DNA from: Amoebophrya sp. A120
Lineage: Eukaryota > Protista > Dinoflagellata
Length of the DNA: 64,000 bases
Direction of reading: 5' to 3'
NCBI GenBank assembly: GCA_905178155.1
Contig: CAJINV010000007.1
Location: 4,366,258-4,430,257 of the forward strand
Position 1 is the stretch's first letter; each line of letters starts with the position of its first letter. The position numbers and the translations under genes were made by a program. Under the pieces are notes generated by a model. The model saw nothing but the letters and a program-made list of their open reading frames with translations, was not told the origin of the DNA and did no database searches. Positions 12,418 through 58,453 of the stretch are shown one piece after another.

Positions 12418-14918
12418 TTATTTCAGCGTGATAGGCAATCGCGGCGGCAATCGAAAAGTTGGCACGTGCCCTCGGTTTTGCGCGTCGACGTAAGAAAGCT
12501 CTTGTCCCGGAGACGGTGGTGGACCGCCACCCGCTGCGCCTGGCGTTTTGCCATAGATCGCATCGTCTTCCTGTTCCTGCGTTGGCTTGTCGGGGGAAAA
12601 AGTAGTGAGTCTCTAATGACTCGGGAGGTGCATACAGGAAGCACTCCGAGGTGGAGGTCTCAGAATCGCATGAAAAATTGAAATACACTCTGCAGCTCCT
12701 CCTCGTCCATGCGTACAACTGTCTTTCTATTTCATCAGATCAAATTTATTATGTAGCAAAATCGCAGAAAAATGAAAGGTCAACTGGCCAGTTTGCCATG
12801 CCCGTTTTTCATGACTACGAGCGGCCTTCCTGTAAGTACAGCGACACATACTAGATCCTCCTACTTATTTCACATCCCATATGGCCACCCGAACCTGAGT
12901 TCCGTGTCCAAACTCGGGTCCTCCGGCGGTTTGTAGAAGTCGAAAGGCGGTCTCGTCATGGCATCCGGCGGCACCCGATTTTTCCGCGACGCGTGCTTCG
13001 GAACACCGCCCACCCGGGGCTCGTTTTTGCATTCCATACCGCATGTGTAAAAGTTCTTTTTCGACCCGTCGCCGCAGCAGAGGATCCGTCCGTTTTCGTC
13101 GCGGGGAACGCCTTTCATGCTAAAGCTAATTTGCGGCACGGCAAACGAGGTTATGGGATCGTTTCAACGATTAAAATTAAAAAAATTAATTTTTATTTAT
13201 TCAAGAGGTCATACAAAATGAAAATCATCAGAGTGCGACGTGGAAACTGCCGTCGTCGCGGGCCTCCGAGGTGAACGTCTCCGGATTGTGTTTTGTTTAT
13301 GGTAATGAAATAGCTAGACACGTCCCAACTTCAGCTAGTTAAAATGGTATGTAGTTGAACAAGGTTTAAGAATGCAAAGGAAGCAGGAAGCTTGGCTCCG
13401 TCTTTGCGGCCCACAAGCTGGGCGTCTGCGTGGTCCCTCGCTCTCCGGCTCGTCTGGGGCCCCGTCACGTAGCAGCGACGCTATGCTGGTTTCGACCGGT
13501 GGAGTTTATGGGGCAATGTGATGGCTTTCGAATACATCCCAAGAGGAAGCTGGTGCGGCAAAGCCTGAAAATGTGTGGCGTTGTAGTATTGAGATCTCGC
13601 ACCTCAACGGACGGAGCAACTTTCGTGGTTTTGGTCATCAGTTTCAGAGTGGGAGTTCCTGAGTTCCTTTTAGAGCTGGAGGATCGCGATTAATTAGACG
13701 CCCAGAGACGTCCAAAAAGACGTCTATTTTCCGCGATATGGAAATGGATTGACTAAGTGGGAATAGCCAAAGTTAATGACGTCCCTGGGGACGTCTCTGG
13801 GAGACGTCCCGCAAGCTCATTTTTGGCATCAAAATGAGGCGCGTCAAAAGTTGACGCTTTTCCTTACGAAAAAGCTACTCTTTAGGATGCTTTTGCCCAA
13901 CATATCCGCAGCGTCGCCTCCTCCACCGTTCTGCTCGCGATACTCCTGCAGGGCCTCACTGGGCTCCGTGTCGGTTGGCGTCGCCTTCTCCGGGCCCAAG
14001 ATATCGGCCAGCAGCTCTTCTCTGCGCGCGTGGATCCCCCCCATGTATTTCCGGCGTCCGGAGGGGGCGCGGAGGAGGGCCCGGATCGCCCTGGCGACGT
14101 TCTCCATACCAAGGCGCTTGGTATTAGAACTGCTCCTGCCGCGATGACAGACTCCAGCTTCCATATCATTTCAACTAGCTTAAGTTGGGACGTGTCTAGT
14201 TATTTCATTACCATGAACAAAACACAAGCCGGAGATGTTCACCTGGGAGGCCCGCGACGGCGGCAGTTCCCGCATCACCTTCTGATGATTTTCATTTTAT
14301 ATAACCCCTTGAATTGCAAAAAATTAATTTTTTTTATTTTAATCGTTGAAACGATCCCATAGAGGTGAAGGCTCTGTGGGTTTTGTTTCGGAAAATCATG
14401 CTGTTTGTGTTTTCTGCAGAAATAGGACGAAGGTGGTCGTGTCTGGCGCGGCTCTCGCAGGCACCGCTGCTGTTCGGGGTAACGGCCGCGACCTCTTGTT
14501 GGGACAGCAATCCGCCGTCGGTATTGATAGAAAAAAGTTCCTGCAACCTGAGCAATGGCATCTTCGTCTGACTGCGATTTGTATTTTTCGTTTTATTGCT
14601 TGCAACTCCGAAAGGATTTTGCCGATTTCTCTTTCTGGTGGTTCTATCTTGCTAAAATGAAATCGGTAGTCCAACTAGATGTGGTGATCGACGACCACAA
14701 GGCCCTTCCTCGCTGCGGATATGGAGTACTGATGTGTACGAAATGCGATGATGAATGTTCTTGGAAGAGGAAGACGAGGGGGGACAATGCTTAATAACCG
14801 TTCGCCAGATCGAAATGAAGCACTGCAGTGTTAAACACATCTGCGCTTTGGCTTTTCCCTCACAAAAACTGCGCAGCCGCGACCGCGACTCGTCGGCAGG
14901 GCCGGTTTTTGCGGCCAA
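12418..14918 (-). CDS. Hypothetical protein, 5' end unresolved; one GT-AG intron (14652-14798) and two TIR-element introns
   Basis: Removing 14652-14798, 13152-14361 plus one TSD, and 12588-12881 plus one TSD gives one continuous 280-codon frame: ...ISIWRT|QDRTT...KTHRAFT|SFAVPQ...LRFGWP|TQEQEDDAIY...PITLK*. Confidence 0.65.
12588..12881. mobile_element. Degenerate TIR introner-like element (294 bp) acting as a non-canonical intron
   Basis: Flanks tggct (12583-87) and tggcc (12882-86); ends TGT...ATA; imperfect TIR (gggaaaaagtagtgagtctcta vs reverse complement gtgaaataagtaggaggatcta); excision restores frame. Confidence 0.7.
13152..14361. mobile_element. 1210-bp DNA transposon with ~200-bp TIRs and 5-bp TSD, acting as a non-canonical intron
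   Basis: TIRs 13152-13351 and 14162-14361 (TATGGGATCGTTTCAACGATTAAAA...); TSD gaggt at 13147-51 and 14362-66; excision restores frame. Confidence 0.93.
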
Positions 14919-22000: not shown

Positions 22001-25000
22001 CAAATTTAAAAATGTCGATTTACCGACACCGTTGGGCCCGACGATCGCGATGCGGCTCGTCGTGTCACATCCGAAATCCAGCTCATCCAGCAAATAGGGC
22101 TGCTCCCCGTCGTAGGAAAAGCACACGTCGGACACGTTCAAGCCGCCAATACCGGAATCTTGCCCGAGGCCGAAGAAGTTGAATTTGACAATGTAGTCCT
22201 TGATCTTTTCGTGGATGTCGTTGATACTGTCCAGATTGAACTTTTTCTTCACCTGCTCCTCCGCTTTGTCCTTCGCCATGCCGGATCGTTTCAGCATCTT
22301 AAACTCGTCCTGCATCTTCTTCAACTCTCTGGCATGCTCCAGCTTCTTCTGCCCAAGCATCTTCTTAAACCCGGAGTATCCCCCACGGTAGTAGAAGAGC
22401 TGCTGCTGGTCCAAATGGATCACGTCGGTGCAAATCGCGTCGAGGAAGTCGGCGTCGTGGGAAACGCAAATGACTGTGTGGGGGTATTCCTCGGAAAGGT
22501 AGTTGTCGAGCCAGAGGACCGCGTCGAGATCCAAGTGGTTGGTCGGTTCATCGAGAAGGAGAAGTTTGGGCTGCAGGAAAAGGGCTTTCGCGAGGGAAAT
22601 GCGCATACGCCAACCACCGGAGAAGGTTTCGACCTGAGCGAGATTTTCGATGGTTGAAGATGGTGTTCTGAGCGTGATCTGATGCTGACTTTCTTGAAAA
22701 AACAAAAATGCTAAATGAATATGAATGCTTTTGTTCGAACAGGTAATGGCAGATATTCCGCAATCATGGCCAATGAATCATCACCAATAAAAGCACTTCC
22801 GCTATTTGGTATACCGTCTGCGTCTGCATTTTCTTGGTGAACCCGAGGCCGGTTAAAATTTTCCTCACGGTCGACTCCAACGCGTTCGCGTTCCGCGCGT
22901 CCAGCTCGGCGGAGACTTCTTCCAACCGTTGCCTAGTTTTTTCCATCTTATCCTGTGCAAAAGTATCGCACTCGTATAAATGCAAGTCTTGCATTACAAA
23001 TCTTTTTCATAAGGCAAATCCGCATTACAAATTTTATTTCTCATGCTGAGCCAATTTGTAATGCATTTATACGAGTACGATACTTTTGCAGTTCATACAT
23101 CTCCACCGCGTCCAATTTGCTGTCAGCATCGTCGGCCGATTCCAACCTCTCCATCAACGCCTTCTCCTCGTCTAACAGTTCCACGCACTTCACGTCCGAA
23201 GCCATCACCTCCTCGACGACGTTTTTGTTGCTCGCCTTCGCCTCCTGTTCCACCAGCAAGATGTCCCAGTCCAGCGGCACGGGCAGTTCCCGCTTCGCGA
23301 TGTGCCGTAGCAGCGTCGTCTTACCCATACCGTTGGGCCCGAGAAAGCCGTACCGGTGTCCCTGCACGACTTTGAAGTTTGCGTTTTTGAACAGCCAGTT
23401 TCCGGCGGCGGCGAGGGAGAAGCCCTCACACACCGCGGAGTCGCCGGAGGGCGGGTGGATGACCTGCCCGCCGGGTACGACGATAGAGAAAGCTTTCAAA
23501 TCACCAGTAGCGGCATCGTCGTCCGGGTTGTGATACCTGATAGATTGTGGGGGGGAGGGGATCATTTGCGCTGCGAAAGAGCTTGGTTTCGTATGTATGA
23601 GGCGTAGGAAAGCACAAGCAACACCTACAAACACGGTGCTACGGCTACCATCAAAAAAAAGCAGTGAAATAAAGAATCAATACTTTGTCTCCGCCGTGTG
23701 TCTTTCCAACATTTTCTTCTCCTTCGCCGTGAGTTTTTCCCCATTCGCTTGTCGCTGTTTCAGATCTTCGACCTTCTCGTCCAAAGTCTTGTCGTTTCTC
23801 GCATCGACCACCAGCCCGACGTTGACCGCACTGGATTCCATATCAGCGTTCTCCTGTGCCTCCGTCGCCGCGAAGGACTTCGCGTGGAAATCCGGTTGGA
23901 AAAAAAGGAGTGATTTGGACTCCTCGAGGGTGGTTTCAAATTCGATCTCTTGCTCTTCGGGTTTCAAGATTTTTTTCTGTTTTATCGTCCCGTAGTACCC
24001 GGCGCTGGTTTCGACACCCCGTTCCCCGGTGTTATCATTTAAACTCGTCCACTTCTTCACCGCGGGGTCGACGTTTGCCGTTGGGGCCATCGTGAGAAAG
24101 AAAACCGTGGTTGGCCTGGCGCAAGTGAAGGTCAGTTTCTTCGCTTTCCCCGAGCAACGGAGAAAACCGAAACCGGTCGCGGGCGTGAACTCCCCGAGGG
24201 AAAGAAACTCCTCCGCATTTTTCGTGCCCGCAGCGACACCGGCGCGAACCAAGCCGGACCCGACATTACGGACGGACGGTTGGAGCTTTGGGTCGGCCTG
24301 AAATGGAGAAATCGGAATGATGGTGGAAGGTTTTTTTCCGAAAATAGGTTTCTTTCACTACGGTATACGGCTGCTACTAGGAACTCATGGAACGTAACGC
24401 AAGATGTAGATCCATCGTGCGTGAGAAAACGTGTTTTTATTTCTGGTGAAATTTGCAATTACACAATGAGTATCAGAATCATCAGCTATCTGTATACATC
24501 TGTCGCCAGTGTCTTGAACGTTCCCGTCGCGAGCAGATCGTGGACCACGCGCCCTTCCATCATGTTTCCAATTTTGTCGGAGACCAATGAGTCCCCCTTC
24601 AGGTCCAGCTCTTCCAAACTTCTGTCTTTCTCCCCTCCGGCGTCGTCCAACCCGGCGAACATGTCCTTTGCCTTCTCCGTTTCCTGCTTCTTTTTCTCCT
24701 TTTCCGCGTTTTTCGTTTTCTGTTCCTGCTCTTTTTTCCTCAAGAGCTCCTGCACGATAGACGTGTTGCCCGACGCATCGTCGTCGTTCATCTGGATCTT
24801 TTTCGCCGCCGCCTGCTTGTTCGCGGTCTGGTCCTTATTTCGCTTGTCCAGCGCTTTGTCCTTGTCCTGTTTCAGGTAGTTATCCGCGTTGGTCAGGTCG
24901 GTTTTCTTGATATCCCCGACGGAATCCCACATCGTCATCTCCTCCTCGTCCGAATCGCCGCGGCGCTTTGGCCGAACTTTTTTCTCCTTCTTCTCTGCGC

Positions 25001-33200: not shown

Positions 33201-34717
33201 TCACTGTCCTCGTCCAGGGAGCAAGAACCTGTGAGCATCGTCCTCCCTGCTCCACACACGCCCGCGGCGGCAGCATCAGGCTCAGCTCTCGCAGCCAGGT
33301 CGTCAGGAGCCAGCGGTAGATCATCCGTAGTCGCAGCTTTCGTCGTGGCGGTGTTTATGGAGAAAAAAAAGTTTGTCACAGTCACTAACTTGCAGGCTTT
33401 CGCTTTGCGTTACAAATTTTCTCAGCATCACAGACTTTTCATGTATTGCAGAAACACTAGGGAAATCCCTACCCTAATAAAGTTTGGCTGTGAAGACGCA
33501 TTTTTACGCATGGCAAACAATTTTGTATATGCAAAAATGCGCATGAGTGATCTTGACGAACATTTTTCTTTGATAGTGTTGTGACTCGCTGTAGTGGCAG
33601 ATTTCTCCCGATGCAAATTTTTCCAAGGCTTGAACTTGGAGCGGGTCTTGTGTCTCCCCCTGGTCGTGGGTGTGTCTGTTACGGTTTCTAGTCCTGGTCG
33701 TGGCGTTCGTGTGCCAACAGTGGGCTGCTGATGCTGCCGCGGAACCTGCATGCGGCTATGTGTGGCCCCGACGAGGGCAGGCCGCTGTACTGGCGAGCCC
33801 GAAGACTCATCCCCTTCATCTTCGCCTCTGGACAAGTAGGATGAAAGCGATTCATCCGGCAGAGTTGACGATCGTCGTGTCTTTTTCTTTCGTGCTCGTG
33901 CTCCTCTTCGTGACTGGAGATGAAGGCCCCCATCGTCTCGGAACAGCTGGTCAAGGAAGGGAAGCACTTCATCCTCTTTTTCCATTCCAGGTCTACTTCG
34001 ATGGTTCACGTCGTGATCATCGCCGCCGTCGTCCTCGAGCACAGTAGAAACTGGCTTTTCATCACGTGGCAGCAACGTGAAAAATGTCGCTTGTGTATTC
34101 GACCTACAACTTTCTGTGTTCTTCTTTTGCGTAGAAGCGGTCGCCGCCTTCTGTTGATCATATCCCCGCATTATCGCCGGAACCGGTCGCGGTGAGCCCG
34201 CCTCGTCCTGGTCTTTAGAGCTATTTCCATGCGAAACTACCTTTGATGATGTTGACCCGCTACTACCGCAGGCCTCGTTGTCGATTTTCTTCTGAGTGCA
34301 GCCTCCTGCTCCTCCTCGTCCTTCACCATTCGCATGAAGATTCGCGTTTCCGTTTCCCGCCACACCACGTGTCGAAAGCAGTTTCTTCTTCGGCCGTGAA
34401 GGAGAATCGAATCCAGCAAGTCTAGCGGTGCTGGACGAGGACGACGAAAACGACGAAAACGTGGCTGACGCAGGTGCTGCAGACCTACCCTGCGATGTCT
34501 TCCTGGCTTCTGTTCGGACACGGACCAACGACTGCCGTGGTGAAAAAGGCGACGACGACGACGACGACGTTGATGAGGTGGACTCGCGACTACAGGTGCT
34601 TGTGCTTGATCCGGCGCTCGATTCACCACTACCTCTGTCACGACTCCGAGATTGGTGGCTCCTACTGTCGTGAATCAGCTGCCTCGAGGAGCGCTTCGGT
34701 GTTGATCGCGTCAACAT
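30227..34717 (-). CDS. Hypothetical protein (~1421 aa) with low-complexity N-terminus and globular-looking C-terminal half
   Basis: The 429-aa and 1052-aa ORFs join in frame (SHNT|ATTKAA) after removing element 33356-33575 and one TSD. Confidence 0.78.
33356..33575. mobile_element. TIR introner-like element (220 bp), non-canonical intron
   Basis: TSD gtgtt (33351-55, 33576-80); TATGGAGAAAAAAAAGTTTGTCA vs reverse complement TATCAAAGAAAAATGTTCGTCA; contains an in-frame stop. Confidence 0.87.
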
Positions 34718-42084: not shown

Positions 42085-45000
42085 CTATCGCAAAAGTTGT
42101 TTCTTCGTTTCCTGTCGCAGTTTTATCGCCTCTGCGTGTTCCCGCACGATCTCCTCTTCGACAGAGTTCAGGGTCAGAAACCGCCACACGTGAATCTCCT
42201 TCGCCTTCTGCCCGTACCGCCGAATCCGCCCGATCGCCTGTAACTCGAAGGAAATGGCTTTATCGACCGTTGTCGCGTTCATGGGGTGGACGAGGAGGCA
42301 GTGGTGGCAGACTTCCGCTAGATTCGTGCCTGCAGCGGAAGTCTCAAGGGAAAGCAGAAGGATGTTGGTGGACTTCGGACCTTTAATATTGCCCGTAGTG
42401 GAGGACTTCGCTAGTCCTGCTGCGGATTTACTAGTAGTATCCTTGCTGTCTGGAGGTCGTGCAGTGGCAGTACTCATGTTCTTGAACTCCGACAGTTTCT
42501 TGTTTTGCGCGATTGCGTCCCCGGTCAAGGTTCCGTAATTGAACCCGTATTTTTCCAAGCAGCTCCCAATTTTGGTCATCAAATTCTTCCACTGACAAAA
42601 CAAAATCACCTTCGCGCCCGGTTCCGTCTCCTCAATGTGCAGTAGAACCTGGCAAATAGCCTGGATTTTCGACCCGAACTCCGCGTGCTTTTCCGGATCC
42701 CGGATCTTTTCCGAAATCAAATCGTTGTCGTACTTCTGCACTTGGTAGGAACTGGTAGTAGGTTGCTGAAGATCCGCAGAAGTGGCACCTGCTACTGCAG
42801 CACCAGAAGCAGAGGATGAGTTCGCAGCCGCAAAAGCGCCTCCGTTTTGATGTTCACTTGTCGGCTTGCCTGGTTTCGATTTCATTTTCGCCTTCATCTG
42901 CTCTAATTGCAAGTTTTCGTCGCGCAGCTGGTCGATCTTCTGCTGCTCGTTCTTCGCTTCGATCTTCACGCCCGCAGACTTCATTTCCAGGGCCAGCGAG
43001 TAGATGTCTTTGGATCCGCGGAGGGGTTTGCGGCAAAGGGCGCACTGGTTGTGCTCGGCCCGCATCTGTCGGTGCACACACTCGACGCAGAAAACCTTAA
43101 TTTTTGTGTTGGAAAGATTTTTCGTTGTACTTAGACGCGCTGCATGGCATCGTTGTAGCAGTGCACGCATATTTTTTGTTGAACACTTTTTCCATTTCCG
43201 TCCACTAGAACTACTTCTACCCAAGACAAACCAAAGAAAAAAGCAATACATGTCCGCAGCTGGTTATCGACAGGCTGCTCACCGGGAGCTGGTCTTCCAA
43301 GCAAAGCACGCACTTTCGACCTGATAGGTTTTTGGACTCCGACTCGTCGATTTGTTTTTTTCATAGATAGTAATACTCCCACAAAAATCAGTTTTGTCAA
43401 CACGCAGGATGTGACGAATCCATCTAAATTTGAGCTATCGCTAGTCGTTAGCGATGTTAGTAAGTAGCTCGGAGAAGTTGTAGCAAACAAGATGTATCAA
43501 ATCCATACCATCATCATCGTCGTCCTCCGGTTTCTCTTGCTGCTCCCCTCCGTCTTTGTTTCCGTAAATCTGCAGCGTTTTCCTGAAAAAGGCAAACACG
43601 TTCACAACCTCCCTCAACGCGCTGAACTGCGAGAGAAACTCGCTGATCGTTTTCTCCTTCAGCCGCTCCAGTTGCACCCCTAGCTCCTGCTGCTTTTTCC
43701 TCCCTTTCGCATTGGCATCGACTTCGCCCTGCTTTAGCGGTGCCGGGGGCTGGTAGCGGAGAAAGGAAACGGCGTTTTCTGCTTTGTTGTTCTCTGCTTT
43801 TGCAGAAGACACGGCTTTTGATGATGATGATGAGCTAGAATTATTTGTTGAAAGAGGTATTTTGTTCATCGTCAACTGTTGCAGCTCTTCGTATTGCTTG
43901 TTCTCTTTCAGGTCGAATTCTTTCAAAACCTTCTTCTTCTCCTTTTCCGGAAGACTTTCGAAAAATTTCGGGTGAAATTTCGCCCTGGAAACCTTCTCGT
44001 GCTGTTCCCGCTCATGGTCCCACTTTTGCTGTATTTTCTGGATTTTCTTTAAATTATCAGCTGTTGGAAAGAAGCTGGACAACACGTTTTGCCAATCGTA
44101 GCTATTGTTCTTGTTCCCGTCCGCCCACTTGATGTTCATGGATGAACTCGACTCCATGTTGAACAGTTTCTGCACCGCTTCCCTCGTCAACCCGCTTTTC
44201 TCCTCGTTGTTGATCATTGCAAGAAACGAATAAGCCTGAAACGGGAAGTCCGCAAACGTCTTCGCCAACCTCCGCTTCTTCTCGGCATCCTGCTGCTTTT
44301 TCCGCTTCATTTCCTCGAGATCGACGTCCTTGCTGTTCACCCGTTTCGGAAATTTCTGCGAAGCCGTAAGTGGAGCAGCTCTGGTGCTGTTCGCACTCGC
44401 GACATAGCTTTTGTCTTTCTTTCTCAATCTTGGATTTTTAATTCCGTCAAGGTCGTCGAAGTCAACATCAAGATCCCCGGCGTCATTTAAAACCGCATCT
44501 AATTCGTTTATTGCCAGCTCGTCCACAATCGGCGGGCACACGAGGTCTAGGCCCAGTTCCTGCTGTTCCGCGTTAGAAGTTTTGCCCTCGGGCGAGGAAG
44601 CTGCGCCAGCTCCTTCTTTGTGAGAGACAGAGGATTTAGTCTGGTTGTTTCTTGCATTCGCAGAAGAGCTACTCGCAACGGCCCCTTGTGCACCACCAGC
44701 ATTGGAAATTTTCTTCATTGCCGCCACAAAAGTTGCAGAACCTCCCTTCTTGTCTGACAAATTCTTCATCTTCGCCTGCTGCTGCCGCACGTAAGACGCG
44801 GCGGTTTGCGACACGGGGTCTAGAACCTTCGAAAAGCCCTTTCTCCTCTCCTCCGGGTCGCTGTTCGAAATCGCCTTTAAAACGGCGAGTCTCCTACAAA
44901 CTCCCTTGATCTGCGTGACAGCCTGTTTCACCGCGGACAGCTTTCGCTCGAAAATCCGGCTGCACTCCGCTCCGGTCGAGCTCCCCTCGCCCCCTAGAGT

Positions 45001-48000
45001 GTGGTGGCTGCAAAGCTGAAGCAGCTTTGCCCGCTTCTCCAAGGCCGTGTCAGAGGCTGAAGATAAAGCATTGTTTCTGGAGCTACCGCTCAGGGGTGCA
45101 CCAAATGGATCAGCAGGTGGTCCTCGTGCGGTACCAGTGAACGTCGAGCTTCCAGCAGCTCCACCTGGCTCCTCCGTAGAGCTGGTACTCGCACTTTGGT
45201 AGTTCATCGCGTTCGCTTGCGCGAGGTAAATTGCGCGCTCCTCTGCGGTGTGGGAGACCGCGATCCAGTGTTCTTTTGTCACGATTTTGTCCGCGTCGGT
45301 CACGGCGGAATTTTGGCGGACGAACCTTTGCAGGAATTTCTCGCAGTTTTCCCTAAAAACTTTCGACCGGTCCCACGGGTGACACTCCTGCAGGTATTTC
45401 AGCCGCTGCTTCGCAAACGCGTTTCGGCTGGCCGTGAAGTAGCAGTCCCGCACATTCGCGCAAAACCCCTTACTGACGTTCTGCACGTGGTGGCTGTAAG
45501 CGCCAACGGTGTTTTGGTTTTCCGTGAAGCCCTCCTGCAGTCGCGCGCCGTAGACCCCGAAGGGCTCAATCTGGAACGTCGCGGGTTCGCTGCCGTTGTT
45601 CCCCCCGCGGCCTCCTCCGTGCCTGTTGTTCCGCCGCCGGGCTTCGCCGTACAGAAAGCTGTCTTCGCTTGGCGTGTAGTCCGACATGGTCAAATCATCG
45701 GAAAACCCTTCGTCGTCCTCATCCCCGTCCCGGTCAAAGTCGGTGTCGAGCTCCGATCGCATGTCGTTGTGATTCACGTTGCTGGTCGTGTGCTCCGACT
45801 GGAAGGAACTGTCAGGCGAGGATTGCATCAGAACATCTTCTTGCACTTCTTCGCCCAGCAGAAGGTCTCCGGGGAGTTCCGGCTGGTGAATATAGTCATC
45901 ATCGTCCTCCTCCGGGGGGAGCAAAGTTTCCACTGCACCGGCGTTCGCAGTGGTGGTGTGTAGAGCTCTAGCTGTACTCGCAGACGATCCACCGGCTTGT
46001 GCTTGTTGATTATTTGCAGTGCCTCCACTTCTAGCCGCGTTGTTCGCATTGTTGGCAATCAGCCCAGCCTGGCGCAGCACCGCGTTGCTTGTCGCCCCCC
46101 GGATTGGCGCCGCTGAGCCCGCACGTGCTCGATTTATGCCACTGTGGTCACCGTTCGCCCTGCCGTGGTTCAGCTGATTGAGCAATTTCCCATTCCCGCC
46201 AGCAATGAAGAGATCCGCGGTGTGGTTGTGCGTGCCGCAGTGCTGACAGATAAACGCCAGCTTCGTACTGGGTTCGTGCGACTGCGGAAGAACCAAAGAA
46301 TTATTTTCCGCAAACTTCACACTCTTCACCGTGAGAGATCTTCCATCTGGCACGTTCCCGGAGACGTAGGGCTCTAGACAGCAGTTGCACTTCCACTCGG
46401 TCATCGGCAACAAATCGTACTCATACTGCCTATGATCGTTGGATCCTCTCCGCCCGCCGTCCGGTTTCGCCGACTTCTGACCGCGTTTGAAGTTAAAGTT
46501 TGGGCAACTCACCCCAAGCGGATCCATCACTGCGGACAAGCCAGAGCGGGGGTCTTTGAGGTCGGCTCTCATCGCTAAGCGGTGGAGCCGGTCCGCGTAC
46601 TCGGCTTCCACTTGGGACACGCCACAGAGGTCGACACCAAATAGCGACGCGGTGGCGGCGACATTCCGAACCGAGTCGACTTGCGGCGTGCCGGTTAGCC
46701 CGAATTTGCTGAAAGCCTTCAGGTTCAGAAGCGAGGAGACCTGCTTGTCTTCAAACGCCTCCAGCTCGTGGAACTCGTCGAAAACAATCCTGCGGAAGTA
46801 AAATTGCTCCAGTAACGGGAACAGCAGTAGCCGGTATTTGTCGTTTTTTATCGAAGAAGATGAAGAACTAGAACTACTTCCGCCGGCAGAGGAAGATTTC
46901 TTTGGATACACACTGTCCATGATAGTCCGGCTCTTCGACGCCGGTGGCACAACAGAATTTCCGAACAACTGACTGGCCTGCGACGCGGCTGCAGACGGCT
47001 TTGACCGCCCGCGCTTCATTACCCCCGGCTTAGACTTGCTGGCGTCGGCGTCGACAAGGATGTTGGTGCTGTCAACATCCATCATGTCGCTACCTGTCGT
47101 GCCACTACCTCGTCCAGGTACGGAAGAGGTTTTTGCGTTGGTCTTTTGATCATTCTGTTCTTTGTCTTCCTCCGCAACCTCATCCAAATCCACCAAAACG
47201 TCCTCCTTTACCTTTTCCTTCAGCGCCCAGGGTTTAAACCTGACCGGGAGTTTTGAATGCGTGCTACTCATGAAGACTCGCGTGTTCTCCCGTAGTTTCG
47301 TAATGTACTCGTGTTGGTGGAGTTGGAAGTCCGTGTCGTCTTTTTTTTCCTCCTTTTTCTTCTTCTTCGGTTTAGGTCTACGAATACCAAAGACATCGAC
47401 CTCGTAGTCCATATCATCATCCGAAGGCGATCCGGTTAAGTCGTCGTCTTCAAAGTCGTCGTTGTAGTACGGCCGATATCCCAGTGAGTTGTGGAATCGG
47501 CCCAACCTCTGATCCGCCTTTTTTCGCCGGGCTTGCTGCTCTTTTTCCAGCTTTTTCTGCTCTTTTTCCTTCTCCTTTTTTTTCTTCTCCTCGAGTTTTT
47601 CCTCTTTTAATTTGTCGTCGCCTAATCCGGACAGTTCTTCGAAACGCGACTGGTGGACGGAGCTGTATAAAACCCGGTACGTCACGAGAATTACGTCGTA
47701 CTGCTGCAGATCGTACACTGTCCGGATCTTCAAGGGGGAGATGTTCTTGCAAACCAGGATATGCAATACAAATTTCCCGTACAACATGTACAAGATGCAT
47801 CACAAATTTCACCAATTTGGAGCGTCAGATTTGTCATGCTTAACTAGGATCGAAGCCAAGTTTTGTCATACAGAGACCGCATTTGTACGAGTACGTCTAC
47901 GTGTACGGGAAATTTACTGTGGATACAGGATCTTCAGCTTGTTGTTCGGCAGGAATTTTTCGATCTCGGTGCTCCACTGGTCGATGAGGTGGGAGGGGAC

Positions 48001-51000
48001 GAGAATCAAGGTGGTCTTCGGGGCTGGGAAAAGACCGGCGGATTCGTGAGTAGAAGTCGAAGGAGAGGAACGATTTGTACTAGAACTGCTGTTCGTCCAC
48101 AGCATCTCTTCCTCTGAAGCCGAGGAGAAAGGACCACCGTGCGCGGAGGAACTGCTGGAGCTCGACACAAAGCCTCGTCCTGATGCGAGATTTTGTTCAC
48201 TCGCGTTTGATGTTCCAGCGGCTGCACCGTCTTCCCTTAGCAAGATCTTGCACATTTTCGCGAAGGTCAGCTGCTTTTTCTCTTCTTTGCCTCCTCGCTT
48301 AGTTTCGTTAGCATCCTGCTGCTCAACGGTTGACTTATCTCCGGCTGCGCTACTCGCGCTCGCCGAACTGCTGCGTTCCTGAGTAGGAAGCTCGTCTTGC
48401 TCAGGAGCCGCGGTTTTCATTCCTTGTTTCTCTTTCTTCATTGCCTGCTGCTTCGTGCCTCCTTTGTTGTCCTTCTTCATAACATTCGTGCTAGAAGAGC
48501 CAGCTGCTTCTGCTGCAACTGCCTTTGCTGCAGCTTTCTTGCCCTTCTTGCTAGTGTCCTGCTTCTCGTCCTCGTCGACTTTTCGCTTCTTCAAAGGCGG
48601 CCTGCTTGCATTTTTCGTTTTCACATTGTCGTCCGCCAGCAGGTCGTCTTCTTCGTCTTCGATTTCATCCTGGTCCTCCGCTTCTGAGTTTTCTGCCGAG
48701 GAGTTGGAGAATTGTTGTTGGTTCAGCTTCAGATCCCGCTCGCTCTCCAACTGAAACCGGTCTTCCTTCGACAACTTTCGTTCCATCACTGTAGTTGAAG
48801 AAGCTCCTCCTGCGTAATTGTCTTCTGTGTCTCTGTTCGCCAAACGCAGCCAATTTTTGATCAATCCCAAGTCCATCGCCTTGGAACTTGCCAACAAGCC
48901 AATACACGTCGCGGTCTTTCCGAAGCCAATTTTGTCCGCCAGAATACCGCCGCGATTGTTGTAATTCGCCGTCATGTTGAATTCCAAAGACCACGTGGCC
49001 TGCGACAAAGGGCAATTTTTGATCGCCTTGTACTCCGCAACACGGCGGTGAAAGGAGTCGCTCGGATCGTGTCTGTGCGAGCCTTCCAGTCTTCCGCTGT
49101 ACGGCTGGTGTCCCTGGAATCCTCTTTTCGCAGGAAGATACCGCTTGTACTCCACTTGCAAGTAGTCGCTGTCGTGCTCCCGTTTCTGCATCCAATAGAG
49201 GGAGCGGAGTTGCTCCGGGCGGAGCGGGTGGTGCCTCGACCAACCGGGGGGCATTTCGCCGGTTGGGTCGTTGTCGTTATTCATGATTTCAAACCGCTGG
49301 AAGTCCTTGGTCTGACTTTGACTGTGGAGGTCCTTCTCACTGTTATTTTTCTTGTTCTTTTTCTTCATCGCATTAGTTCTGGTGTTCAGAGGACCTCCGG
49401 TCAAGCCGAGCAGGCCCTTGTTGTCTTTTGACGATGATTTCATGGCTTTACTTGATGCGCTCGCGCCTCCTGCCCCCGTCGTTCCGGCGAGAAGTTGGTC
49501 CTGCTTCTTTTTCATCTCCAAGATCGTTTTCCGGTCGATCACATAGTCCCTGCTCGGCGGCCGGCAGCTGTTCCAAATCGCGACGCCAGCCTCCAGCTTC
49601 GCGGGGGCAAACCGGATTCTTTCGAGAAAAAAGCGCTGAAAGATCCGGCCGAATTCCACTCTAATTTGCCACTGCACGTGCTGCTCGCGAAGAAAGTTGC
49701 ACTCCTTCAAGAAGTTAACTTTTTGTGCGTTCACAACGTCCAGCACCAATTTTAACGAAGTGCCGGTAAGGTCCTGATCACCAGTGTCGGCCTTCTCCTT
49801 ATTTGCAGAAGCTCCGGCTGTTCCCGCTTTGCCTCCAGTAGTCGCAACTTTTTTCATCGCTGCTTTCGCTTTTGGTGCGGCTTTTGCTTTCGCTTTGCTC
49901 TTCGCGGCCGGTCCAGTTTTTGCTTTTGCAGCAGCTCCAGATGGTTTGCCATTTTCTGGCTTAGATGCAGTCTGCGTTTTGACAAAACGCAGTACATCGT
50001 CCTCCAGAGCGGCCTTCTCTTTTTCCTTCGCCAGCCCGTTACAACCGGCGAGCATCCGCTTGTAGACGCGATCAATGGCGCTGGCTGCTTCCTGGGTGTT
50101 TGTGACATCCACAGCACCCCCGCCAAGGCCCGCCGGGTTGTCCTTTTGCTTCTGCAGGGTGGTTAGTGTCGGTACTAACAAATGTCGTTCCGTATTGATC
50201 ACCTTAATGTCGATCGGAACGACGCCCAGTAACGAATTGTGCGCCTGCTCCGTGTTGTTCTCAATGCTTCCCTTCCCATGGGGTTGGTAACTTGACAAGA
50301 AAGAAAAATTGCTGGCGGAGTGATCGGACTTGACGAACCGCGGCACGCAGTCGTCCAGCCGGTTGTCGCGGATCAACAGGCGGTCCATCAATTCCAGACG
50401 ATTCATCGCCGGGTTAGCCCCCTCGTGGGCTCCGAGACCGTCTTTTCCCAGGCCAAACACCGGGTTGAATTTGGTTTTGTCCAACGAGAGCGTCGCGTCC
50501 GGGTTTTCTACCGCGACCGCCATTTTCTGCAGAAAGTCGTCCCGGAGAAAGTTGACTTCGTCGTTGATCCCCTCATTCAAGTGCATGCAGTGGATGTCGG
50601 AGTAGAACCGAAGGTGCAGCCACTGGAACCGTATGCAATGCAAATTTCCCGCACATGTACAAAATGCATGACAAATTTCGCTAACTTGCAGTGTCCAACT
50701 TGTCATGCTAGACTAGGACTGAAGGCAAATTTTGTCATGCAGAGACTGCATTTGTACGTGTACGGGAAATTTACTGTGGATAAACCGGGTCACCGGCCGG
50801 TCCTCGTTTTGCGACTTCCACCCCGTTATCAAATGCAAAAATGTCTGGGTCTGGAACAAAGAAACTTGTCATGCTAAATCTCAATCACGTACGAAGTCTG
50901 TGTTGCATGATTACCAAAAGCTGTCCACTTTTGACCTCATCGAGAGGCAGTTTCTCATGCAGGATAGGCATGATATAACTCTCACGGAGTCTGTCATGCT

Positions 51001-54000
51001 ATGCCCTACATACCAGACCGCTTGGGTCATGGAAAACCTGCATGACAAGTCTGGCAGTTTTCAAAGACCCAGACATTTTTACATTTGATACCCGTGCTCA
51101 AGTGCGCACAGTGCGCCTGTTCCCACTGCGCCTTGCGCTGCGCTTCCGCCCGTTGCCGATGGTGGAAATTCATGAGCCCGATCTTCCGCTTGTCCATGCT
51201 GAAGATGCTCGGCGGCAAAGGGGCATTCTCCTGTTCCAGACGCGACGGGCCAATCAGCAGCTTCTGGCCTTGGGTCGCGAACACGTCGGTCAAGTCCGTC
51301 TTGTCCTGACCAACGAGGAAGCAGGGGTTCTGTTCCAGGGCGAGAGCGGTCAAATTAGTCGGGATCGAGAAGTCTTGCTGGTGGTCGGGTTGATGTTCTG
51401 ACTTCTGATTTTCGTTGTCGCCTAAATCGCGCTTCGATTTTCTTCCATTTTTTTCTGCTGTTTTATTATTTCCGCCGACGTCCTTCTCGTGGTCCTTCTC
51501 CATCTCTTTGGTGGATTTCATGCTCTTTGCTCGACCTCCTGCAGCTGTGGAAGTTCCGATTGACGGTGCGTTTTTCAACAGTAATTCCGTGATATCCACC
51601 GGAAACCGCTGCTGAAAGGTCGCAGAAGATTGCGAAGTAGAACTCGTCTCTTGTAAGAACGAAGGCCTGATGTTGTCCAAGGAGGACGTCGCCTTGTGCT
51701 TCTTCATCGTCTCTCCCATTACGTTTTTGAAAGCGTTGGCAAAGAAGGGATTCTTGCTCACCACGGTATCGTCAAAAGCACTGCTGCAATTGTTTGCTTT
51801 ACCGACTACCTGAGAGGCGGCGTCACCCGCGGCTTCACCGCCTGCAAGAGAATCAGTCGCGGCTCTCTTCGTCGCGCCCGAGCACAATTCCTGCAACGGC
51901 ATCAGACTCGGTGTGCAGTTCGCCACCGAATCCGGCCGGATTACCCGCGCGTGTGTTTTGTTCATGTCGGTTTTGTGTTTCGTGTTTGAGGGCTGCGGAG
52001 TGCCGGACGCCATTAAATCGACCACAACGAAATCGGAGCCGGTTGCTGGTGTCTCCTTCACATACAACTCCATCTTGCTAGAAGTTGAAGTCGCATCTTC
52101 TACGCCACCATCTTCCTTTTCCTTATCTTCCTTCCCGTCCGTGATCGTTAACTGACTAACACCTTGTCCTGCTCCTGCTTTTTTTCCCACCGCGCTCCCT
52201 CGGATCGGTAAAGTTTTGTGCACCTGGTTGTAGGTGGCGGCGAATAGATCCTTGACCGCCTTGCAGCAGTCGTTGGTCGCCCCGGGGAATTTGAAAAAGC
52301 TGGGCAGATCGATGACAAAGTTCGCGAGGTTTTGCAGCATGTCATTCGTCATCTCCACGTTCAGCGGTGAGCCCTGGTCCCAGTCCGACCCGGACACGTT
52401 GCCGTAATTCAGAGATTTGTAAAGATTTTCCACGTCGGTCAGGAAGGAGAGCTCCTTGTGAAAGTGCGAAGTGGGGTGCTGTCGAGGTGCAACTATGGTG
52501 CTGTCAAGCGATTTCAACATCTGGAACTTCTGATCCGTGGTCCTTGCGTGATTCATCGCGTTGCTATTTATTTCCTCAAAATCCACATCCATGTCGTTAC
52601 TTTCACCTGCAGGACCGGTTGCTTGTTCCCCGGTAGTCGCCATCGGTTCTTGGCCTCTGGGATGAGCGTCAAATCCTGGAATCTGCGGGGCCAAATGTCC
52701 GCTCGCGGGAAGATTTTTCGTCTGCGACGCCAGCAAAATTGGTTCCAACAACTCACAGAACTTCAACAAGTCGACGTTGTCTTTCGTCCCGAAATCGTCC
52801 GTCATCAGCATTATCAACATCCCGACCATCGCACGAAGCACTTTCTGCCTCACTTCAAAAACCTCTCGATTTTGAGGTAGCGAGAAGATCTTGTCGCGCA
52901 GCAAATTGTAGTCGTGGAGAGGAAGGGGAGGTGGCAGGGAAGCAGCTGCAGCAGCAGTGGCGGATGACCGGAAAGTTGTACCATACACATCTAGATCTTC
53001 TACTTCTGCGTGGTCAACATCACTACCGTTGGTGACGTCATTCTGCTCCGACGCACGCCACGACGCTAGGATCTGCTCGTAGTTTTCCACAACCTCCTCC
53101 ACAATACCGTGCTCCACCAGTCTGGCAATGCAGTGGTCCAGCGCGAACCAGACCTTGCAGAAGACCATTTTGCTACTGAGCGGCTTGTCCGCCACCCCAA
53201 AATTTGCCGGGTTGCTGTCCCCCTCCAGAATGGTGGCCGCCGTGTCCTTCATAAGGTCCTCCATCTTGAACTCCCTGTCTTTATTGGAATACTGCAAGCT
53301 GTGCTGCCACCGCGGAGAGGGCATGGTGTGGTGTAACCTCACGAAGTCGCCGGTGCCGAGGAAGTTCTCGTTGATGTAGCAGTTGTCCAGTTTCACCGCT
53401 TTGCTCATCTTCGGCGCATTGAAAGGCGTGTGGTGGTTATGGTGTTTCGACGGCGCAGCCTTTGAAGATGCTCCTGAGGTGTTTTTGCTACTACTTTTTT
53501 GCTCAGCACCATCTTTCTTGCCGTCCGCTGCAAAGTTCGGCTTGTTCAGAATGTGCGAGCTGGTAGTCAGAATGCTCTTCTCTGTCGTTTTCAACATGCT
53601 GGCCATATCCCGGCGGGTTAGCGCGGGGAACTTCACGATGTCGTCCGGCTGCGCCAGCCAGGAGCTCACTGCCTCGTAGTAAACGACCTCAGAGGACGCG
53701 AAATAACTGGATTCATGCGGGTAAGCGTGGATAGCGACCTCTCTAGTAGTTGCAGTTGTGCTGCCCGCCGGCGCTGTTGCAGAAGAAGTTAATATGTTGT
53801 CTCCAAAAGTTGCCCTGTTTTCCTCGTCCTCGTCGCGCACGACCACCTGTTCAATGTCAGAGATCAAGCAGGTAGTTTTATTGTTGTGACCAGAAGGCGT
53901 TATCTGCTGCTTGAACAGCTTCGAACTTTTCCCGTTTTTACTGCCGTTTCTGCTCTTGTCTTTCTTCTCGCTTTCCGCCCGCTTGTGCTTTTTCGCGGGC

Positions 54001-57000
54001 GAGTTCTGCTTCTTGTTTATGTTTTTGCCCTGCATATTATTTGGCACGCGCTTCATCGCCACAACGCTTTGCCAATTGGCCACTCGCTTGTACACATGCT
54101 TTTGGCCCGCCCGGACGCCGGCCAGAAAGCTGAGAGGCCGGGGTTTGCTACTCTCCTCTTCCTCGTTATCGGTATCCCGATCCTCCGCATCCTCGTCCTC
54201 AATATCGGAGTTTTCGGACCGTTTCTCACCAACAGCATTATGCTCCTTGTCCTTGCCAGCACCGCGATGAAGCAGCTTTCCAGTTTGGAAAGGATGATCC
54301 GACGATTTGATGTTCTGCCTCTTTTCATACTCAACTTCCATTTCCCTATCCCGTTGCCTTCTTTTCTTCTCTTCCGCTTCCCTCTCCCTCCGGTGCAGGT
54401 TGTTGACCAAGTCAAATTCCCTCAGATCAGCGTGCGGGCAGTGTGTGCGGAACAGAAAAGGATCAACGCCCGTCTGGTTGCAATCCACGTCGTTAGTGGG
54501 CTCGCATTGCTGAATCTGCATGACCGCCTGCTTCAAAAGGGATTTGTTCTTCTGGAGGTGCATTTTTCTGCTGCTCCTACTAGCACCAGTAGTGGGTTCT
54601 TGTCCACCATCACTTTGGCAGGAATTCTGCTCCCGTTCTTGCAACATGCGCTCGAGCACGTTCAGCATCGGAGCGGTGTAGATGTCCGAGGCTGCTGTTG
54701 ACGGTGGTCGTCGCTCGCTCGCCCGATTCTTCTCGTTCTTCAGAGAGCATTCGTAGACGAACCGCAACTGCTCGATGTATTGCCTTGTTGAAGGACTCAA
54801 ATCTCGCACGGATTCGTAGCGGGCGGGAGTTATTCCTTTATTTTCCTGCAGCATATTGTTCAATTTTGCAGGAGCCTTGCTGCTAGAAGACAAAGAGGAA
54901 CCGACAGCTTGGTTCGTGCTGGTGTTTATAGTTCCGCACTGTTCATCCGCAAATCCGAACTTCTCTAGCTTCTGCTCCATCTCCGACAAAGCTTCCCTTA
55001 GTTTCCCCTTCACGTCCCCAGCACCGCCGTCGGTAGTGGTCCCGCGAAAAAGCATTCGGTTCAATTTGATCCAGCCCATATGCGGATCGACTTGGTCCTT
55101 ACTGAGAATGTCGGCGAATTTATTACCACTCTTGTTCTCCGCTTTGGACTTCATTTCTTTCTTACTCTTATCCCCCTGCTCAGCCTCGTTTTGCGCCGCT
55201 AACTCCTTCTCCCTTTTCTCCAAATCTTCTAGCAGGTCCAACAGCCGCTTGTTCGGTCCACATTGCTCCAGCGGTATCTCGCCATCCAGATAGCTACCCG
55301 CTCCTCCTGCTACCTCCTCCTCAGCACAGTCGTCCCTCCGTTCACAGATCGGGACGCGGTGCACGGACAGCGCAAACCGCCACATAATGTCGCTGATAAT
55401 GCTGTCCGGGCTATTTCCCACTTCCTCCTCTTCTTTCCGAGAGTCGTAACTTTTCATAGCTGCGTCCGCCCGTAAATTCACGTTTTTCTGATTGTCTAAC
55501 TGGAGAAACGTCCGCAGGGGGTTCTTCCACTTTCCGAGGAGCATCCAGTTTTTCAACGCGTTTTCAATGCTCTCGCGGAGGAACTGCTGATTCCGCCGGT
55601 CGAACGACTGCCGGCTTTTGTAGAAAGAACTGTCTTGGTTGTACTTGGTTGTGGAAAATTTCGTGCCGAGTGTGACAACCCGGGTCACGCACTTCAAGAA
55701 TGCGTTTACTTCCTCCAAAAGAAGCTCGGGAAAGCGAAAAAAGGTTCTTGTTCTACTTGCCGCGTCGAGGTGCTGCTGTGTTGATGAAGACAGAGCATTT
55801 TTATGCCCGCCGGTAGTTGTTGAACAAGACACTAAACCACGACGTTGTTCCGACGAAGACGAAGATGAAGATCCTGACAAGAAGTTCTTGTTGTCACCAT
55901 CAACTTTGTCGAAGTCAAACACCTTGAGCGTATCCCGGTAGCTGAGCGGGCCGCTTTTGTACTCGTAGTCCAGTCTGTAGTTCGTGTTGTGCTTGTGCGT
56001 CCGCCTCTCGTCCTGCGTGTCGGGCTGTTCGGTGAACCTGGACCGCGTTAAGCCGGACAGTTTTTCGAACCGCATGTCTTCATACACCAGCTGCTCCCCG
56101 TATCCACAGTAAATTTCCCGTACACGTACAAATGCGGTCTCTGCATGACAAAACTTGCCTTCAATCCTAGTCCAGCATGACAAGTTGGACTCTGCAAGGT
56201 AGCGAAATTTGTCATGCATTTTGTACATGTACAGGAAATTTACATTGCATACCCCGTACTCGGGCGGCAATTCCTCCTCCCGGGTCGCTTCGGAATGATG
56301 GATGTGTCAGGTTTGAAATCGTCAAAGTTGAAATAGTTTGAGTTTGTCATGCATAAAACAGATACCAGTCGGAAGCCCACTTATCAAGCGGCGCATGACA
56401 AATTTTCCGAGCACCGGAATCCAATTTGTCATGCTGTTTGGGCACAGAAGATTGCTTTTGTCATGCGAGTTTAGTAGCTCTATTTCAAACCCTAAATAGG
56501 CTCATAATCTGCCTCATTTGCCATCCCGGCAAGACAGGCACTTCATGCCTTGCACTTTATGCATGAGAAATCATTTCAACTTTGTCGATTTCAAACCTGA
56601 CGCTTCCATAAGAATCCTCGTCCGAGTAGAAATCGTCCTCGTCAGAAATAAAGCTGTCGTCGTCATAGTGGCGGTCTCGGTTGTTCCCCCTCCGATGGTG
56701 CTGTGCGTAGTTCCGGTTGCCGGCCGGCCCGACCTGCTCGCCCATCGCCGCAAACCGCATCGCAAGCTCCGCGTGGCTGGTCGGCGGCCGCAGGATAGAT
56801 TCATTTATGGTTCCCACGACGTCGCTGTTGTCCTCGTTTTCATCAACTACACCTTGTAAGATAGCTTCAACATCATCCAGCACCTGATTGTCACCGACAG
56901 TTTGTCCAGGAAAGTTTAAGTTATTCGTGCTATTGTTTTCTTCATCTCGTTCTCGCCGTCCTGTGATGTTGAGTCCGTTGTTCTGGTCTCCTCCAAGTCC

Positions 57001-58453
57001 AACCTCTTGATGTTGTTGAATTATTCCGGAAGAGAAAGATGCTGGTGGAAGCCTCTCCACGAGCAGGTCCCGCACCACTTTTCCGTACCGGTCCTCCAAT
57101 CTTTCGCCCGTGAAGTCCCTGTGGTACCCCACCAGCGTCTATCAAATGTAAAAATGTCTGGGCCTGGAGGAGTCATGCTGTTTTTGCATGACACAGAAGG
57201 TCTGGCATGGAAGCTCTGGCATCACAGGTTTCGAGAAGCTTCCGTCATGCCGAATCCGCATCACAAATCCCCCATTCTGGTGACAGAAATTGGGCAGCTT
57301 TTGCTACCTATGCATGAGAGATCTTTCTGTGTTCGGAAATGCGCATCACAAGTTTGTATTCTTCCAGACCCAGACATTTTTGCAGTCCATAGCGTCCGAA
57401 TGGACACGAGCGACCGGTTGCGCGCGTCGGCCTCTTTGTCGCGCTCTTTCATGTTGTGGTAGTCGTGCGGGGAGGTCGTGTTCGTCATCGCCGTGAAGTC
57501 CTGCCGGCTCCCCATAACCTCGTAGTTTTTCGTGCCAAAATAGTACCCGGGCTTCGCACCCAGAAACTTGTTGGAGGGAATACAAAAGGGAAGCGAGGAC
57601 GAGGATGAAGACCCACCAGCACTACCTCCGTGCGTTCTACTGTACTGTGCGAAGAGCTCGTCCACCGTTTTCGGCTCGGTGCTTTTTGTGGTTGCGAGCA
57701 GGTCCTTGGACTCCTTCAGGACCAGGGCTTCGATCTGGAGGTTTGGGAAATGGAAAATAAATCATGTACAGATATCAAGCGACAGTTGCGATATCATATA
57801 TCACACAAGGAACTTACTGTTAGACTCAAAGCAAACTACTGGGTCCTGGCACTGACAGTGATGAAAAAACTAAAAATTAATTTTTGAAAAGCAAGAAAGC
57901 CTTTATATGTTGATACGGTTTTTCGAAGCTCCTCCCGCTTTGCAGCGTCCATAATACTATTTGGCTCTGCGGTTGTTTGAAGCGCGGAAGACGAGGATGA
58001 GGATGCGGAGGCTCCTGTAGGAGGTGCACCAATTTTGATGTTTGTAGCCAAACTTCTATCCCCGCCCCCGGCTACAACATCTAGCAACTGGGCCGCAACC
58101 TTTGCCGCGGCTTCCTCTGCGAGTTTCATCTCCTGGGTCGTTTTACTATTTGGTAGAACTGCGTTGTGGTAGTTTGCGAACGCATTAGCTTGATGCATCG
58201 CAGCAGAGCTACTACTCGCAGAACCGCCTTGCTGCGCGCCATTTCTGGTGCCGGCACCCCCTCCGGGGGTATTATTTGCGTTGACGTTCATGGTTGCCAC
58301 TAAATTGGCGAACCGCTCCGGATTCGACAAATATTTGTCGCAAGCCACGTCGACGGACCGGAATTTCTTGATCAACGCCTTCGCGAGCGCCTCATCGACG
58401 GACAGGATTTCGCAGACCGTCCGGACCTGTTCCGAAAATGTCGACCCAGCCAT
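42085..58453 (-). CDS. Giant SNF2-family helicase/ATPase with RING finger (Rad5/Rad16-like group), ~4838 aa
   Basis: Motif I GGILADKIGFGKT; Ia TLILVPSHLIDQW; II RIVFDEFHE; III GLTGTP; RING CVLC...CGHVFCVEC...CALCR; IV KVILFCQW; V AAGTNL; VI QAIGRIRRYGQ. Three GT-AG introns (57735-57916, 43321-43508, 43096-43249) and six TIR introns give 14517 nt = 4839 codons. Confidence 0.9.
47760..47925. mobile_element. Family A TIR introner-like element (166 bp)
   Basis: TSD cagga (47755-59, 47926-30); TATGCAAT...GTGGATA; excision gives KLKIL|VCKNISP. Confidence 0.93.
50632..50782. mobile_element. Family A TIR introner-like element (151 bp)
   Basis: TSD aaccg (50627-31, 50783-87); excision gives RPVTR|FQWLH. 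Confidence 0.93.
50827..51090. mobile_element. Family B TIR introner-like element (264 bp)
   Basis: TSD cccgt (50822-26, 51091-95); TIR TATCAAATG(C/T)AAAAATGTCTGGGTCT; excision gives HLSTG|WKSQ. Confidence 0.93.
56101..56251. mobile_element. Family A TIR introner-like element (151 bp), inverted relative to the other two copies
   Basis: TSD ccccg (56096-100, 56252-56); its reverse complement matches 50632-50782 with ~9 substitutions by manual count; excision gives PEYG|EQLV. Confidence 0.93.
56297..56610. mobile_element. TIR introner-like element (314 bp), family C
   Basis: Flanks ggaat and agaat (one mismatch); GAT...ATA ends; inverted repeat gtcaggtttgaaatcg(t/a)caaagttgaaat; excision gives DEDS|EATREEE. 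Confidence 0.88.
57140..57391. mobile_element. Family B TIR introner-like element (252 bp), inverted relative to 50827-51090
   Basis: TSD gcgtc (57135-39, 57392-96); TIR core AAAAATGTCTGGG; excision gives SIRTL|VGYHR. Confidence 0.92.

Follow-up and report, generated by a model that had tools for sequence, protein, structure and literature searches.

A short element with terminal inverted repeats (TIRs), here called family A, interrupts one gene of the dinoflagellate Amoebophrya sp. A120 three times, twice in one orientation and once in the other, and it is very probable that elements of this kind are removed from the transcript whichever way they lie. The gene, which encodes a SNF2-related helicase, is found on the minus strand of a stretch of 64,000 nucleotides (nt), the whole of which is referred to as the window. 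The elements are small non-autonomous cut-and-paste elements of the A120 introner kind, with TAT...ATA ends and a 5-bp target duplication. Two copies, A1 and A2, are absent, at non-canonical boundaries, from a contig that is RNA-like, and removal of the inverted copy, A3, is indicated by the gene model. Family A is real and belongs to a published element class, for which a hairpin model has also been published (PMC7789003), and the present results are a refinement of a known system and not the description of a new one. According to the same source, 60–65% of Amoebophrya introns are without GT-AG and 35% are GT-AG, and the removal of the former, apparently without U1, is a question that it leaves open (PMC7789003). 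Removal regardless of direction and of landing site would explain how such an element spreads through coding sequence.

Family A in the host gene

A protein search with the long frame running through A3 returned one match among 3,911 candidates, P0003 (4,838 amino acids (aa); Amoebophrya sp. A120 by source), and a protein search with the A3-containing frame returned a single, unrelated match among 91 candidates. P0003 maps exactly onto ten minus-strand segments of the window, from 58453 to 42088, which gives the host gene 10 exons and 9 introns: three GT-AG introns and six TIR elements with 5-bp duplications (A1, A2, A3, B1, B2 and C). The third GT-AG intron needs, on a by-eye reading, a 3-nt shift that leaves the protein unchanged. 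In P0003, PF00176 (SNF2) scores above its Pfam cut-off, and the RING and Helicase_C matches lie below theirs. Orientation X is the direction in which A1 and A2 lie on the transcript, and orientation Y that in which A3 lies. The gene, its ordinary introns and its family A copies are as follows.

42088..58453, minus strand: host gene, SNF2-related helicase with RING finger and Helicase_C, 4838 aa, from the P0003 mapping
57735..57916, minus strand: ordinary GT-AG intron, 182 nt, no hairpin, fold z 0.0
near 43321-43508 and 43096-43249, minus strand: two further GT-AG introns, no structure
47760..47925, minus strand: A1, family A, 166 nt, orientation X; duplication 47755-47759 and 47926-47930; 171 nt removed
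50632..50782, minus strand: A2, family A, 151 nt, orientation X; duplication 50627-50631 and 50783-50787; 156 nt removed
56101..56251, minus strand: A3, family A, 151 nt, orientation Y; duplication 56096-56100 and 56252-56256; 156 nt with duplication

The original prediction was that one element sits in both orientations within one gene and interrupts the SNF2 coding sequence at all three sites. Both points stand, with exact coordinates: A1 and A2 lie the same way, A3 is their reverse complement by alignment score, and all three are inside the one minus-strand gene matching P0003. The identity of the inverted copy to A2, put by hand at about 94%, is 142 of 151 positions (94%) without gaps. Globally aligned, A2 and A3 score 257 when one is inverted and 59 on the same strand, against −54 or less in 30 shuffles; once 30 nt are removed at each end they score 152 and −6, respectively, and therefore the interior of A3 is truly inverted, and not its ends alone. 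A1 and A2 align in the same orientation with 132 identities and 15 gap positions. Each of the three copies starts with TAT, ends with ATA and lies between the two units of a perfect 5-bp direct repeat. Being short, non-coding and TIR-bounded, with a target duplication of fixed length, family A has the defining features of miniature inverted-repeat transposable elements (MITEs). In Rfam, no described structured RNA or self-splicing intron matched positions 47000-58000 at the gathering score. Since A2 and A3 are 94% identical, mutually inverted and carried on one transcript, they form a natural controlled pair.

Probable removal from the transcript and copies in a related genome

The direct evidence for removal comes from the contigs of run X1, a single sample that is guessed to be RNA, as are runs X2-X4. 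Its record 1, a 10,289-nt contig of depth 26 with 0 mismatches, joins 47926 to 47754 and skips exactly 47755-47925 (171 nt), that is, A1 and one copy of its duplication. Between 51091 and 50626 the same record has just 39 letters, so that B1 and A2 are removed with one duplication each and a 39-nt exon is left; the loss of A1 is seen singly, and that of A2 and B1 in sum. Record 4 departs from the window sequence at 57391, the edge of B2, and continues for 326 further letters, as expected if B2 is removed (one side is covered among the matches listed), and a long contig of run X4 ends at the edge of A1. Contigs of the DNA-like run X5 continue unbroken over the junction into A1, A2, B1 and A3, and thus the elements are present in the DNA. 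Word shares in runs X1-X3 are 0.87–0.88, for which 0.879 is predicted if the elements are spliced and 0.898 if they are retained; because the DNA-like runs reach only 0.92–0.93, these shares are compatible with both. Run X9, of raw RNA reads, gave 0 coverage on the exons of the host gene. Separately, 31 partial reads of that run are placed at 50823-50885, mostly on family B ends, which indicates that a related strain has these ends too.

For the remaining elements the evidence is the protein model. P0003 omits all six elements and is without the 52 residues that A3 would add. The gene models of A120 are based on alignments of transcripts and proteins, ab initio tools having failed (PMC7789003), and nothing would lead a predictor to interrupt an open frame at non-canonical ends, which suggests that the A3 junction is transcript-derived. 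The elements of other families in the gene, the short exons beside them and a distant relative elsewhere in the window are listed here.

50827..51090, minus strand: B1, family B, 264 nt, 5-bp duplication; 269 nt with it, frameshifting; absent from run X1 record 1
57140..57391, minus strand: B2, family B, 252 nt, inverted relative to B1; 257 nt with duplication, frameshifting; omitted from P0003
56297..56610, minus strand: C, third family, 314 nt; 319 nt with duplication, frameshifting; omitted from P0003
50783..50821, minus strand: exon between B1 and A2, 39 nt, from the gap in run X1 record 1; P0003 residues 2151-2163
56252..56291, minus strand: exon between C and A3, 40 nt; P0003 residues 469-481
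22949..23097, minus strand: D, distant relative of family A, orientation Y, 154 nt with duplication, frameshifting with stops; inside a gene with an ABC-transporter domain

B1 and B2 align better in reverse than forward (114 vs 8; 25 vs −67 with the ends trimmed), and both shift the frame if kept. D, which lies in orientation Y, breaks the ABC-domain gene, ABC-F-like on a by-eye reading, if kept. The two copies of the C duplication (56292-56296 and 56611-56615) differ at one synonymous base, at which mRNA reads would reveal the side of the cut.

Scanning with the left end of family A gave 34 loci, of which L011 was dropped as not being an element; the remaining 33 all belong to a single assembly (JACKZZ01 contigs) from a related organism, which at the one locus compared is 82% identical to an A120 protein. 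Complete copies with at most one mismatch in the duplication are present at 29 of the 33 (L020, L029, L032 and L033 did not pass). The host strand was called in 26, L001, L004 and L028 staying uncalled, by a codon model trained on the window gene, which called minus all nine window tiles used as control; Pfam matches lie on the called strand in 7 of the 17 loci scanned. In these 26 copies, 14 are in orientation X and 12 in orientation Y (p 0.85), so that a strict bias, which would have counted against the original prediction, is not seen in this sample. Related families likewise occur in both orientations (D-type 9:6, B-type 3:7, C-type 1:1).

Removal also restores reading frames. Once the element is taken out, seven X and ten Y copies lie in a frame that is open for at least 250 nt to either side, and eight of these ten Y copies break the frame if kept; among the eight, the coding score of L023 is poor, and L024 and L025 are on one contig. 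The Y copy L008 (161 nt) interrupts sequence that runs on unbroken in the A120 protein P0005. A search of representative proteins with an L031 exon found one 100%-identical prediction and one weak match. Across 80 strand-called elements, the open stretch reaches at least 150 nt to either side in 54 when the element and 5 nt are taken out, compared with 25–32 for frameshifting offsets, 3 if the element is kept and 15 on the other strand. This frame test cannot separate removal of 5, 2 or 8 nt beyond the element (54, 52 and 53 of 80), and the 5-nt register is therefore fixed by the run X1 contig alone. The duplication carries a mismatch in 19 of the 80 elements, and in those with one mismatch the true cut can be read from existing RNA-seq. 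On the protein model and the frame restoration, copies in orientation Y are probably removed as well.

Three further observations concern the fetched loci. Between neighbouring elements (n=55) no gap is shorter than 34 nt, and 17 gaps are 30–70 nt, where about 6 would be expected with even placement; this null is rough, the loci being anchored on a family A copy. The clustering leaves exons of about 30–65 nt, seen at 50783-50826, 56252-56296, L004, L012, L015, L017 and L023. At L033 (640-1520) a family A copy holds an insert of about 730 nt with a flanking direct repeat of about 11 nt, a nested second mobile element, and at L032, near 1358-1520, another family A copy has GTA and not ATA at its far end; removal of this copy with 5 nt still opens the frame (262/485 nt, Y strand).

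Putative removal signal and candidate machinery

None of the six TIR elements of the host gene has a GT-AG register that restores the exons, and in none of the six can a GT, GC or GA start be combined with an AG end in one register. Among coding-region elements with perfect duplications, GT-AG or GC-AG is possible in 0 of 51, vs about 4 by chance (P ~0.015), and G before TAT, which would provide a GT donor, is not enriched (13/67, background 0.29). Thus, the elements do not borrow ordinary splice sites. Their 5' end and the reverse complement of their 3' end have alike profiles, TAT-S-x-A-x-x-G-Y-AAA, across unrelated interiors, the TAT and ATA ends themselves being required by the element detector. 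An exact AUA end is not indispensable, as C, with one deviating end, ends AUC on the transcript yet is omitted from P0003. When the two ends are paired, positions 4 and 7 are mostly unpaired and positions 11-14 are paired in 72–78 of 80 elements. The fold z is −3.0 to −10.7 on both strands of A1-A3, B1, B2, C and D, and −1.3 to 0.2 in the three GT-AG introns of the host gene.

Inversion alters the interior only, and hence the signal must lie in the symmetric ends; unbiased orientation and the lack of a canonical register together confine it to the symmetric part, about 30 nt per end. It had been proposed that removal depends on features surviving inversion, namely the terminal motif and the TIR hairpin. 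The first half is upheld, removal both ways being very likely, but these data do not separate the hairpin reading from one in which the symmetric end motif is the signal. The use of inversion as an argument against strand-specific signals is not supported, since the TIRs present the same motif at both 5' and 3' ends either way, and it is further weakened by published TIR introners that form spliceosomal introns either way round (bioRxiv 2020.10.14.339549). The absence of any GT-AG register is the stronger argument.

The elements are likely removed either way, and the likely reason is that, through their inverted repeats, each orientation has the same motif at its ends and a long predicted hairpin. 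A stem starting about 9–11 nt inside each end would bring the ends together, with the UAU-S-x-A-x-x-G-Y-AAA motif, common to both ends, at its base; the cut would be set by position relative to the hairpin structure and not by a dinucleotide, and the 5' site would be held by the hairpin in place of U1. On balance, we lean towards a remover derived from the spliceosome, with the hairpin standing in for U1, because in A120 nearly all spliceosomal proteins are present and U1 snRNA was not detected (PMC7789003).

Several points weigh against this account. The stem is equally explained by the need of transposition for inverted repeats, and covariation across the TIRs would likewise be predicted by transposition at the DNA level, which is why it was discarded as a test. 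Its pairs lean to the transcribed strand without significance (G.U 137 vs A.C 114, p 0.16; per element 38 vs 22, p 0.052), and the transcribed strand is the more stable in 46 of 80 elements (p 0.22). Among the matches listed no RNA piece spans A3, whose probable removal is drawn from one gene model and the family statistics, and run X1 is of guessed nature. Host strands in the related genome are predictions of our own codon model with the Pfam check described above. Finally, a spliceosome without a fixed terminal dinucleotide has no clear precedent in the literature searched.

Alternatively, both orientations may be removed by a non-spliceosomal cut-and-ligate system that reads the hairpin base, cuts at fixed offsets and releases circles or linear hairpins, an explanation that we regard as possible though less probable. 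It would account for the canonical register in 0/51 elements, for the loss of just one 5-nt copy of the duplication whatever its sequence, which implies measuring from structure, and for the internal-loop-and-stem shape that the families have in common (positions 4 and 7 unpaired, 11-14 paired); euglenid nonconventional introns have also been reported to leave as full-length circles (PMC11282704). However, no such enzyme is known here, and no search was made for one; the near-complete spliceosome must serve the 35% GT-AG introns, and the tunicate spliceosome, according to a review, adapts to non-canonical ends. It is rather doubtful that a second, non-spliceosomal and orientation-blind system of this kind, reading the hairpin base and measuring five bases, erases tens of thousands of transposon insertions from mRNA in any sequence context, and the spliceosome may well be involved.

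It is very improbable that orientation X alone is spliced and that A3 is kept and adds 52 translated residues to the protein. The original prediction had cautioned that A3 might be kept, and A3 with one repeat copy is indeed 156 nt (3n) without stops in the host frame, with no RNA record across it among the matches listed. Retention is largely answered, however, by P0003, which is without these residues, and by the eight Y copies that break long frames if kept, together with the frameshifting B1/B2 pair and the A3-oriented D. One open frame is intrinsic to orientation Y, occurring in 10 of 12 Y copies vs 0 of 14 X copies, and read-through copies number 2, with 2.3 expected by random phase; therefore, the open frame of A3 is no sign of retention.

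Reverse-transcriptase jumping across a hairpin between short direct repeats is a known complementary DNA (cDNA) artefact, for which the classic setting is a strong hairpin that lies between direct repeats and lacks splice dinucleotides. That the gaps arose in this way, with the elements staying in the mRNA and ribosomes hopping over them, is less credible still: the RNA evidence here is entirely cDNA-based and a 5-nt repeat always contains one whole matching codon, but the joined form in run X1 is unbranched at depth 26 with no long unspliced piece at A1 among the matches listed, the duplications of 19/80 elements are mismatched, and six hops in one 14-kb message seem implausible.

Some side observations bear on the ends and on further elements. 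In the 67 coding-region elements of L001-L034, A is over-represented at the last duplication position of the transcribed strand (28/67 vs a background of 0.24; p 0.0014, uncorrected for 60 tests), and position 1 shows no mirrored excess of T, which hints weakly at a strand-specific preference at the 5' end. A few outer 10-mers recur in varied left/right pairings on unrelated interiors in the window and L001-L034, and families A, B and C have in common an internal motif, TGTCATG or its complement. A single enzyme may mobilise all families. A 5-bp duplication would suit an integrase-type enzyme. The element at 13152-14361 is 1,210 nt long and has inverted repeats of 200 nt, with TAT...ATA ends and a 5-bp duplication that is perfect; it is without AAA at positions 11-13, its longest internal frame is 158 aa, and it is not clearly in coding sequence. 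A TAT...ATA element with a 5-bp duplication at 33356-33575, between two long minus-strand frames, measures 225 nt with its duplication (3n) and has stops in every frame.

Comparison with known introners

The closest match is the introners of A120 itself, described as 29,850 copies in 1,954 families with inverted repeats of 8–20 nt joining the ends, TAT followed by seven variable bases and AAA, direct repeats of 3–5 nt at the boundaries, variable splice dinucleotides and a hairpin model, and with no cognate autonomous transposase reported in the parts of the paper covered (Farhat et al. 2021, PMC7789003). Family A agrees in its host organism, the same by protein match, in its TAT-N7-AAA inverted repeat, in the perfect 5-bp repeats at A1-A3, in forming a repeated family (three window copies and 29 complete copies in 33 related-assembly loci) and in non-canonical removal, A1 and A2 being absent from run X1 record 1 and having no GT-AG register. 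The published boundary is left undefined in the text covered, whereas here it is the element and one 5-bp copy; orientation to the host gene is not addressed there, 'orientation' in the text and supplement being, among the matches listed, only that of genes, and it is unbiased here (PMC7789003). The literature searched, in which few subscription papers were covered, contained neither a paper on the orientation of Amoebophrya introners nor an account of unbiased orientation without a canonical register; the rule 'element plus one 5-bp copy' was likewise not found in print there. A specialist would have half expected both the unbiased orientation and the 5-bp rule from the published hairpin model.

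Introner-like elements of Aureococcus anophagefferens were reportedly described by Huff et al. in 2016. Introner classes of Polarella glacialis form introns either way, as in A. anophagefferens (Roy et al., bioRxiv 2020.10.14.339549), and these are likewise TIR elements with target duplications. Unlike family A and its relatives, with GT-AG or GC-AG possible in 0/51, they carry or recruit GT/GC/GA...AG sites, and an orientation bias is reported for them in contrast to the 14:12 seen here. The TIR introners of A120 with LTR-integrase-like homology (Gozashti et al. 2025, PMC12130899) are TIR-bounded and from the same organism; family A is without coding capacity. Finally, the nonconventional introns of euglenids resemble the present elements in their non-canonical ends, in TIRs that pair a few bases inside the ends, in duplication-like repeats, in a probable MITE origin and in an unknown mechanism of removal, and they differ in lineage, in their CAG/CTG end motif and in the circles reported there (PMC11282704).

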